Source of the DNA: Escherichia coli 042
GTDB lineage: Bacteria; Pseudomonadota; Gammaproteobacteria; Enterobacterales; Enterobacteriaceae
DNA length: 64,000 nt
Strand: one strand, 5' to 3'
NCBI RefSeq assembly: GCF_000027125.1
Contig: NC_017626.1
Shown here: piece by piece, positions 26,870 through 27,352 of the stretch
Layout of the letters: every line of letters begins with the position of its first letter
Numbering within the stretch: position 1 is the first letter of the stretch
The notes under the pieces: model-generated
Databases searched by the model: none
The model's input: the letters and a program-made list of their open reading frames with translations, nothing else
What the model was told of the DNA's origin: nothing
Program-made: the position numbers and the translations under genes

Positions 26870-27352
26870 GGCGGATGCGGCGTAAACGCCTTATCCGCCC
26901 TACATGTGCAATCCTGTAGGCCGGATAAGACGCAGCAAGCGTCGCATCCAGCAATTGCACCGCGCCACTGGCGGATGCGGCGTAAACGCCTTATCCGCCC
27001 TACATGTGCAATCCTGTAGGCCGGATAAGAGCAGCAAGCGTTGCATCCGGCAATTGCACCGCGCCACTGGCGGATGCGGCGTGAACGCCTTATCCGCCCT
27101 ACATGTGCAATCCTGTAGGCCGGATCAGACGCGGCAAGCGTCGCATCCGGCAATTGCACCGCGCCACTGGCGGATGCGGCGTGAACGCCTTATCCGCCCT
27201 ACATGTGCAATCCTGTAGGCCGGATAAGACGCGGCAAGCGTCGCATCCGGCAATTGCACCGCGCCACTGGCGGATGCGGCGTGAACGCCTTATCCGCCCT
27301 ACATGTGCAATCCTGTAGGCCGGATAAGACGCAGCAAGCGTCGCATCCGGCA
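26870..27352. repeat. Tandem BIME array: about 4.8 copies of a roughly 100-bp unit, each holding two REP palindromes in opposite orientation
   Basis: Unit ggcggatgcggcgtRaacgccttatccgccctacatgtgcaatcctgtaggccggataagacgcRgcaagcgtcgcatccRgcaattgcaccgcgccact repeats from about 26870, 26970, 27069, 27169 and 27269 (last copy truncated), filling the eutH-eutG intergenic space. Confidence 0.85.

Follow-up and report, generated by a model that had tools for sequence, protein, structure and literature searches.

Within the 64-kb window (the whole stretch of Escherichia coli DNA that was analysed), the eut genes form one long, uninterrupted operon on the minus strand with the transcript order eutS-P-Q-T-D-M-N-E-J-G-[array]-H-A-B-C-L-K-R, in which the array of tandem repeats described here sits on the sense strand between eutG and eutH. 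Over this region the window matches strain 300033 (NZ_CM128588.1) with 100% identity. In that strain the two adjoining ORFs are annotated as eutH and eutG, eutG being preceded by eutE and eutJ and eutH being followed by eutA and eutB. The spacer that reaches from the eutH start at 26838 to the eutG stop codon at 27354-27356 measures 515 bp; the remaining eut junctions are overlaps or gaps of at most 45 nt, except for a gap of approximately 106 nt between eutM and eutN. According to the first-pass annotation, eutG lies downstream of the array. This polarity had to be reversed, because both genes are encoded on the minus strand and eutG is the upstream one, so that any dosage split at this junction would set eutS to eutG against eutH to eutR.

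Tandem Repeats Finder reported a period of 100 nt repeated 4.8 times with 97% matches and 0% indels (score 912; 26869-27352), and start-to-start spacings of 99, 100, 100, and 100 were obtained with a direct-repeat finder. On the minus (transcribed) strand the array consists of five pairs, each with a z2 REP of 38 nt, a 12-nt linker, and a y REP of 35 nt, which gives ten REPs in total, and the units are joined by four identical 15-nt linkers. The consensus pair reads TGCCGGATGCGACGCTTGCyGCGTCTTATCCGGCCTAC - AGGATTGCACAT - GTAGGGCGGATAAGGCGTTyACGCCGCATCCGCCA. Following the transcript, the TAA of eutG is succeeded by a single A, the five pairs with their four GTGGCGCGGTGCAAT joints, ATAAATAACAACTAACAGGGAGTAAAGGCG, and the ATG of eutH. 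Any two units differ at 1-5 positions only. Unit 4 carries a 1-nt deletion, which shortens it to 99 nt; this deletion lies in its z2 REP (37 nt), which also has a G>A change. The earlier reading of the repeat as an array of inverted REP pairs in 4.8 near-identical copies is thus borne out by the alternation of z2 and y REPs, by their alignment to the naRNA4 model (see below), and by the small distances between units. Its statement that the whole spacer is filled holds for the 484 of 515 bp that are repeat, but a single nucleotide behind the eutG stop codon and the 30-nt eutH leader are outside the array. This leader is unchanged in all BIME alleles examined, and the AGGGAG of eutH stays 30 nt after the last hairpin at any copy number. 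The positions of all features are compiled in Table 1. Elsewhere in the 64-kb window, approximately six more REP-like tails were seen, among them a BIME-1-like element at 5560-5660 with the structure y - 35-nt linker - z1.

Table 1. Features of the eutG-eutH junction, in transcript order, and matches of the naRNA4 model (window coordinates).
Feature	Position	Strand	Remarks
eutG CDS, 395 aa	27354-28541	-	Stop TAA at 27354-27356; adjoins the array upstream in the transcript; ORF list and RefSeq annotation of strain 300033
Pair 1, z2 REP TGCCGGATGCGACGCTTGCTGCGTCTTATCCGGCCTAC	27315-27352	-	Hairpin starts 1 nt past the eutG stop
Pair 1, y REP GTAGGGCGGATAAGGCGTTCACGCCGCATCCGCCA	27268-27302	-	12-nt tail-to-tail linker AGGATTGCACAT (27303-27314) between y and z2
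Head-to-head 15-nt linker GTGGCGCGGTGCAAT before pair 2	27253-27267	-	
Pair 2	27168-27252	-	z2 27215-27252, linker 27203-27214, y 27168-27202
Pair 3	27068-27152	-	z2 27115-27152 with CTGATCC variant, y 27068-27102; 15-nt linker before it 27153-27167
Pair 4	26969-27052	-	z2 27016-27052, y 26969-27003; 15-nt linker before it 27053-27067
Pair 5	26869-26953	-	z2 26916-26953 with TGCTGG variant, y 26869-26903; 15-nt linker before it 26954-26968
eutH leader ATAAATAACAACTAACAGGGAGTAAAGGCG	26839-26868	-	Shine-Dalgarno-like AGGGAG at 26847-26852
eutH CDS, 408 aa	25612-26838	-	First gene downstream of the array; ORF list and RefSeq annotation of strain 300033
y-linker-z2 unit, RF02564 (naRNA4)	27218-27299	-	Full model, 77.5 bits
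y-linker-z2 unit, RF02564	27118-27199	-	71.6 bits
y-linker-z2 unit, RF02564	27019-27099	-	59.3 bits, weakest match; unit of pair 4
y-linker-z2 unit, RF02564	26919-27000	-	75.9 bits

BIME-2 elements are defined as tandem copies of z2 and y REPs that have a short S linker and are flanked by s/l/r sequences, whereas BIME-1 denotes a single y-L-z1 unit with an IHF site in its long L linker (Ton-Hoang et al., PMC3333891). BIME-2 copies are generally near-identical within a locus and variable in number between strains. Moreover, a mismatch in the stem of the REP palindrome is required for binding by TnpA-REP, which cleaves and recombines BIMEs in vitro (PMC3333891). The ten REPs at the eutG-eutH junction alternate between y and z2 and in their orientation, and both hairpins align column by column, with high posterior probability, to the Y and Z2 parts of the naRNA4/REP325 model. 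The tetranucleotide at the foot of the REPs is conserved throughout, as in transcript orientation each of the five z2 REPs ends with CTAC and each of the five y REPs begins with GTAG. Both palindromes are imperfect, as y folds with an internal AA/GC mismatch and z2 with a 1x1 mismatch. The linkers measure 12 nt tail-to-tail and 15 nt head-to-head in five tandem pairs, without any long L linker, and besides the near-identity of the units, alleles of one to five pairs occur at the locus (see below). Nothing essential separates the array from the BIME-2 class of Gilson, Bachellier, and Hofnung (PMC3333891), with which it shares the alternating y/z2 arrangement, the short tail-to-tail linker, and the extragenic position directly past a stop codon in near-identical tandem copies of strain-variable number; the y REP merely has a locus-specific stem, GGCGG...CCGCC vs. 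GCCGG...CCGGC. It is thus practically certain that the eutG-eutH array is an ordinary BIME-2, consisting of five z2/y REP pairs placed head-to-tail in an ancestral spacer of approximately 30 nt. Its ten REPs put it near the upper end of reported array sizes, for which REP325 with 12 REPs was the sole comparison checked.

Several other identities were considered for the repeat. The elements known as BIME-1, RIP, or RIB also combine a y REP with an inverted z-type REP, but they are single-copy, contain z1, and carry the IHF site in a long L linker; none of these features is present in the eut array. No match to the IHF core consensus WATCAANNNNTTR was found in 26839-27353, and in the entire window the motif occurs just twice, at 17252 and 39688. 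With this motif missing, linkers of 12 or 15 nt, and a partner REP that aligns to the Z2 hairpin of the naRNA4 model and not to z1, a BIME-1 was rejected. IHF binding, which had been ascribed to the array in the first-pass annotation, is not supported either, since it is a property of the BIME-1 L linker (PMC3333891). Three terminator-like sites were predicted between 26000 and 28200, all of them outside the array, and an intrinsic terminator was rejected because the REPs are followed by linkers instead of T-runs. A search for sigma-70 promoter-like sites in the array was likewise negative. A CRISPR array is at odds with the inter-palindrome stretches, which are identical in every unit, and also with the palindromes, which change type and orientation from one to the next. 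Both strands of the array contain ORFs, including an 84-aa frame that begins with an ATG directly past the eutG stop. Protein coding was rejected because the unit length of 100 nt cannot be divided by three, so that each unit gained or lost shifts the frame, and because no Pfam match was obtained for the ORFs of the array.

The Rfam model RF02564 (naRNA4) matches the array four times, always on the minus (transcribed) strand and over model positions 1-77. Its gathering score of 59.5 bits is passed by three of the four internal units, and the fourth falls 0.2 bits short. There are no other naRNA4 matches in the 64-kb window, and other Rfam families gave only matches far below gathering (mir-3204, MIR810, isrG). 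REP325, from which the naRNA4 family was defined, is a BIME-2 array of the form 6 x (Y-l-Z2) located between yjdM and yjdN (PMC4550694). Since the model was built on a BIME-2, the matches confirm the y/z2 assignment and the architecture of the eut array. Both arrays repeat a Y-l-Z2 unit with identical inter-unit spacers, in six pairs in REP325 and in five in the eut array; compared to the model, the linker of the eut units is longer by an insertion of 4 nt and the z2 loop by one nucleotide (cmscan). HU binding and nucleoid condensation by naRNA4 have been shown for REP325 only (PMC4550694). As a further difference from REP325, the eut array lies inside an inducible operon of 17 genes. In effect, the model describes any BIME-2 unit, and the match signals a shared ancestry of the repeats, not a shared HU function.

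When folded as RNA, the spacer reaches -290 kcal/mol (z = -9.3 vs. 100 shuffles), and the structure of the array is far beyond chance. Within pair 1, the z2 hairpin has -23.5 kcal/mol (z = -6.2) and the y hairpin -20.9 kcal/mol (z = -5.2), and a y-l-z2 unit can fold as a single long hairpin of -50.8 kcal/mol. The capacity to form one long hairpin is common to the inverted REP doublets of REPIN/RAYT systems, which are mobilized by REP-associated tyrosine transposases; in contrast to these, the changes at the eut locus are local tandem gains and losses and not new insertions, and the window does not contain the transposase gene. The minimum-free-energy fold of the spacer goes beyond local hairpins and pairs neighboring REPs with each other, so the structure adopted in the cell is uncertain. 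Among the y stems compared, 36 copies have GGCGGAT/ATCCGCC, and 4 copies, which stem from another Escherichia clade, have GGTGGAT/ATCCACC. All copies retain 7 of 7 Watson-Crick pairs, and compensatory changes are confined to y. These substitutions point to selection on the local y hairpin, which may act for the benefit of the host or through recognition by the REP transposase.

A query consisting of the array and 500-bp flanks located the junction in 5,425 of 5,426 complete E. coli genomes, and with the flanks alone the spacer was found to measure at most approximately 800 bp in 5,394 of 5,411 records. The copy number was determined in two systematic samples of 59 records each, which were ranked differently. 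Most frequent were alleles of two pairs (216-bp spacer, as in K-12 MG1655 and AVS0536; 23 records in each sample, about 39%) and of one pair (116 bp, as in CLSC36; 19 and 20 records, about 33%). Five pairs (515/516 bp, as in the window and MS20645) were counted in 5 and 4 records (about 8%), three pairs (315/316 bp; BL21(DE3), Ecol_316) in 3 and 5 (about 7%), and four pairs (416 bp; ET474) in 2 and 0 (about 2%). Besides these, both samples contained four records with a decayed single pair of which the first z2 half is deleted (99 bp; an O157:H7 strain), and three in which an unrelated G+C-rich repeat replaces the BIME (169 bp; YL3; about 5%). The latter repeat is interspersed, with a median of 15 sites per genome, and in one O157:H- strain an IS30 was observed at the eutG-eutH junction. 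Alleles with more than five pairs were found neither in the two samples of 59 records nor among the 60 best matches, and the five-pair allele of the window belongs to the upper tail of the distribution, at roughly 8%.

All BIME alleles keep both ends constant, while whole internal 100-bp units are gained or lost. Ecol_316 is 100% identical to the window over 600 nt of flank, yet it has only three pairs (units 1, 4, and 5), and a difference of three vs. five pairs between identical flanks implies that the copy number changed recently. The five-pair allele of MS20645 has unit-specific substitutions that differ from those of the window, and lineage-specific substitutions are common to all units of an allele (window CTACAGGATT vs. 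CTACGGGATT elsewhere). Judging from these comparisons, changes in copy number are recent and recurrent. The strain-variable copy number predicted in the first-pass annotation, for which it had proposed a comparison across E. coli genomes, was thereby confirmed with a range of one to five pairs. As regards the recent expansion it had assumed, the identical flanks of Ecol_316 substantiate a recent change, but its direction could be either expansion or contraction. BIME-2 arrays with near-identical copies and copy-number differences between strains have been described since the 1990s. High identity and strain variability are known properties of the class and not special to the eut site.

The same junction was studied in other genera by a scan for EutH with one genome per species, which yielded 50 loci whose eutG-eutH spacers were measured and read. 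Several Citrobacter (C. braakii, C. amalonaticus S646, and others) have a spacer of just 27 nt, ATACACATATGACAGGGAGTGAAGGCT, with no REP, which is the counterpart of the 31 non-repeat nucleotides in the E. coli spacer. Similarly short spacers are present in Pluralibacter and Yokenella (32 nt) and in Hafnia, Morganella, and Buttiauxella (34-48 nt). A single REP is found in Salmonella enterica subsp. diarizonae (67 nt) and C. sedlakii (60 nt), and one pair (119-124 nt) in C. youngae, C. werkmanii, C. koseri, C. gillenii, and Pseudocitrobacter. In both the youngae/werkmanii and the koseri/gillenii type, the REP that begins with GTAG comes first after eutG, which is the opposite of the order in E. 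coli. Spacers of 170-216 nt in Klebsiella contain REPs of the Klebsiella type (GTAGCCCGG), and those of other Escherichia clades range from 116 to 578 nt. These sequences show that the junction was filled more than once, each time by the REP family of the respective host. Such repeated filling fits a permissive or hot-spot site or, alternatively, a modest benefit of a hairpin at this position.

On the basis of what is known for the class, growth and shrinkage of the array would be local and could proceed by slippage, by unequal recombination of the 100-bp units, or through the Y1 transposase TnpA-REP. The array would be transcribed within the long eut mRNA and fold into ten stable hairpins, which may block 3'-to-5' exonucleases and in this way let the eutS-eutG segment outlive eutH-eutR. 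The first hairpin, 1 nt past the eutG stop, could in addition stall terminating ribosomes and lower the output of EutG, and on the DNA level the y REPs would be probable gyrase cleavage sites. Among the intercistronic REPs with which the array may be compared, those of malE-malF and hisJ-hisQ, number two or three, against ten in the eut array. These elements, likewise situated between two genes of an operon, protect the upstream mRNA and favor the upstream product, as summarized in PMC12306157 (Newbury et al. 1987). This source also attributes the blocking of 3'-exonucleases and the stabilization of upstream mRNA to REP hairpins in general (Newbury 1987 and Khemici and Carpousis 2004, via PMC12306157), and it describes that terminating ribosomes stall and upstream translation drops where a REP is located at most 15 nt from the stop codon (Liang et al. 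2015, via PMC12306157). With a distance of 1 nt, the REP behind eutG is well inside the 15-nt limit of such stop-proximal REPs of the nrdAB type (Liang, Rudd and Deutscher 2015, via PMC12306157), and a similar effect may by analogy apply to eutG.

The only expression data retrieved, from the proteome of K-12 W3110, whose allele has two pairs, list the relative abundance of EutE at 27, EutG at 7, EutB at 37, EutC at 24, and EutL at 39 (PMC11334477). As EutB, EutC, and EutL, which are encoded downstream of the array, are no less abundant than EutE and EutG, which are encoded upstream, strong polarity at the junction is unlikely. The low value of EutG is compatible with a damped EutG output. Other possible causes of a low EutG level in K-12 are its own ribosome-binding site and the overlap of eutG with eutJ. 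Among the papers searched, none names eutG together with extragenic palindromes, and no experiment on this junction was retrieved. Taking the analysis as a whole, the chance that class-typical RNA effects would be measurable at the eut locus appears slightly less than even.

Partial attenuation of transcription would be a different way for the array to act on the operon. RNA polymerase would then terminate within the array, with or without Rho, eutH-eutA-eutB-eutC-eutL-eutK-eutR would be expressed at a lower level than eutS to eutG, and more pairs would cause more attenuation. Espeli, Moulin and Boccard reportedly described transcription attenuation at BIMEs in 2001; a 515-nt untranslated stretch could expose the RNA to Rho, and a variable number of pairs could serve as a tunable dial. 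The array contains no hairpin with a T-run, however, and the excess of G over C on its transcript strand (C/G = 0.88) together with the heavy structure would make for poor Rho loading. Furthermore, eutR, which encodes the activator needed for eut induction, is located downstream, and strong attenuation would cripple the positive feedback of the operon. The W3110 values, in which EutB, EutC, and EutL at least match EutE and EutG (PMC11334477), also speak against it, and we consider such attenuation unlikely. The partial termination and relative dosage control envisaged in the first-pass annotation accordingly lack both a terminator-like site in the array and a strong polarity in the proteome. 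A main role on the level of DNA, as a strong site for gyrase or as an insulator of topology that absorbs the positive supercoils of transcription in the long induced operon, would agree with the over-representation of BIME-2 among gyrase cleavage sites, which is independent of transcription and shows a preference for y REPs (PMC6379681), and with the reported position of BIME-2 at the borders of supercoiling regions (PMC10592627). Yet gyrase cleaves only a subset of BIME-2 elements (PMC6379681), neither eutG nor eutH is mentioned in the Topo-seq supplements consulted, and the variable, dispensable occupancy of the site speaks against an essential role, which leaves this possibility distinctly improbable. 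Even less can be said for processing of the induced array to RNAs of approximately 80 nt (y-linker-z2) that would bind HU and form bridges in cruciform DNA, as described for REP325. Over the whole naRNA4 model, three units on the transcribed strand do exceed the gathering score, the 6 x (Y-l-Z2) architecture of REP325 is alike, and most REP elements are reported to be transcribed (PMC4550694); but the model fits in effect any BIME-2 unit, the eut linker has the 4-nt insertion seen in the cmscan alignment, and the operon is silent without ethanolamine and B12 (PMC11334477), which precludes a housekeeping role in the nucleoid. A function of this kind is very improbable.

The array might also be a selfish or neutral passenger, that is, REPIN-like pairs, mobilized or amplified by the REP-associated transposase, which landed in the one gap where the operon tolerates them, drift in copy number, and do not affect eut expression to any consequence. 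Junctions of 27-48 nt devoid of repeats occur next to intact eutG and eutH in several Citrobacter, Pluralibacter, Yokenella, Hafnia, Morganella, and Buttiauxella, and in E. coli the site is occupied by one to five pairs, by what is left of a decayed pair, by the unrelated interspersed repeat, or by an IS30. The number of pairs differs even between alleles whose flanks are identical, and as the other junctions of the operon are overlaps or gaps of no more than 45 nt (apart from eutM-eutN with approximately 106 nt), few landing places are available. That the site tolerates empty, decayed, replaced, and IS30-interrupted states suggests that any function of the array is dispensable and that its copy number is not under tight selection; the exact number of pairs is probably close to neutral. 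On the other hand, the pairing of the y hairpin is maintained by compensatory changes, although recognition by the transposase would explain them equally well, and species-specific REPs have come to occupy the junction in Escherichia, Salmonella, Citrobacter, and Klebsiella, which fits a hot spot or a benefit. Experiments on the class, as reported in PMC12306157, show moreover that REPs alter mRNA stability and translation. On balance, a passenger without any consequence for eut expression seems rather unlikely. At the opposite extreme, the junction could be a selected punctuation point that uncouples the mRNA fate of eutS-eutG from that of eutH-eutR and damps EutG, with the number of pairs (one to five) as a fast-mutating heritable dial, a proposal we regard as highly doubtful. 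We favor the ordinary BIME-2 with the RNA effects typical of its class, a reading that is likely overall when the near-certain identity is weighed together with the slightly less than even chance of measurable RNA effects at this locus.

The significance of the array past its correct annotation is small. Its alleles of 116, 216, 316, 416, and 516 bp could provide a small length marker for typing, but as they recur independently in different lineages their phylogenetic value is limited. If it were true that the number of pairs tunes the ratio of upstream to downstream products, the locus would represent a natural case of repeat-number control within an operon, which the evidence does not require. 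For the engineering and quantification of the eut microcompartment, it is relevant that the spacer varies between two pairs in K-12, three in BL21, and up to five in wild strains, with O157:H7 retaining a decayed remnant only, and that the first hairpin directly abuts the eutG stop codon.

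The eut operon (window 19651-34901) is uninterrupted in E. coli 042. Unlike K-12 MG1655, this strain lacks the CPZ-55 prophage between eutA and eutB, and the second-largest gap of the operon, of about 106 nt, separates eutM from eutN (window 31081-31186). A contrast case to the BIME-2 array between eutG and eutH is the BIME-1-like element elsewhere in the window, where the Rfam model ES036 (CssrF), an sRNA, matches positions 5592-5634 on the plus strand with 41.1 bits against a gathering score of 37.6.

Features of the window discussed in this section
Feature	Window position	Strand	Description
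BIME-1-like element	5560-5660		y-type REP, 35-nt A+T-rich linker (AAAATCATGCTAATTCAATATATTGCAGAAATATC) and z1-type REP
eutB	22839-24200
eutA	24212-25615
84-aa frame through the array	27099-27353	minus	opened by the ATG of TAAATG

The hexamer TAAATG (window 27351-27356, minus strand) is formed by the eutG stop codon and the start of the first REP. The frame that opens here was treated as non-coding, because a Pfam search with it gave no match and each 100-nt unit of the array shifts the reading frame. Translation may nevertheless re-initiate at this ATG after the eutG stop.

Several E. coli strains carry other alleles at the eutG-eutH junction (L numbers denote the fetched loci of other genomes). 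In strain YL3 (L007, 501-669), the 169-bp spacer contains an unrelated G+C-rich interspersed repeat, probably similar to boxC, with the arms GGGTGAGGGG and CCCTCACCCC. E. coli genomes carry this repeat at a median of 15 places each, and it replaces the BIME in approximately 5% of the sampled genomes. The 99-bp spacer of an O157:H7 strain (L006, 501-599) retains only a decayed single pair, in which a deletion has removed half of the z2 REP adjoining the eutG stop and the y hairpin has become weaker (-11 kcal/mol); the 99-bp alleles of both genome samples are of the same kind. O157:H- 493/89 (L061, 1652-3003) additionally has an IS30 insertion at the junction, and the eutH gene of this strain is annotated with a reduced length of 1197 nt. 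A 1-pair allele of the E. coli type was also found in a contig labeled as a Citrobacter sp. MAG (DXKH01000140.1; L011). This contig encodes an EutH with 100% identity to the E. coli protein, and mis-binning of E. coli DNA into the MAG is its probable origin.

Arrays of 474 and 578 bp occupy the spacer in other Escherichia clades, represented by Escherichia sp. MOD1-EC7003 (L053) and E. coli SCPM-O-B-8794 (L013), and in both the first z2 REP, beside the eutG stop, is truncated. The stem variant GGTGGAT/ATCCACC, which is compensatory, recurs in four of the five y REPs of L053, suggesting that this locus has undergone concerted evolution. In Klebsiella spp. (L020, L022, L025, L035, and L054, upstream of position 2501), the eutG-eutH spacers measure 170-216 bp and are filled by Klebsiella-type REPs (GTAGCCCGG.../...CCGGGCTAC), and several Citrobacter species have an empty spacer of 27 nt. 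Therefore, the eutG-eutH junction is a site of repeated colonization by host-specific REP families.
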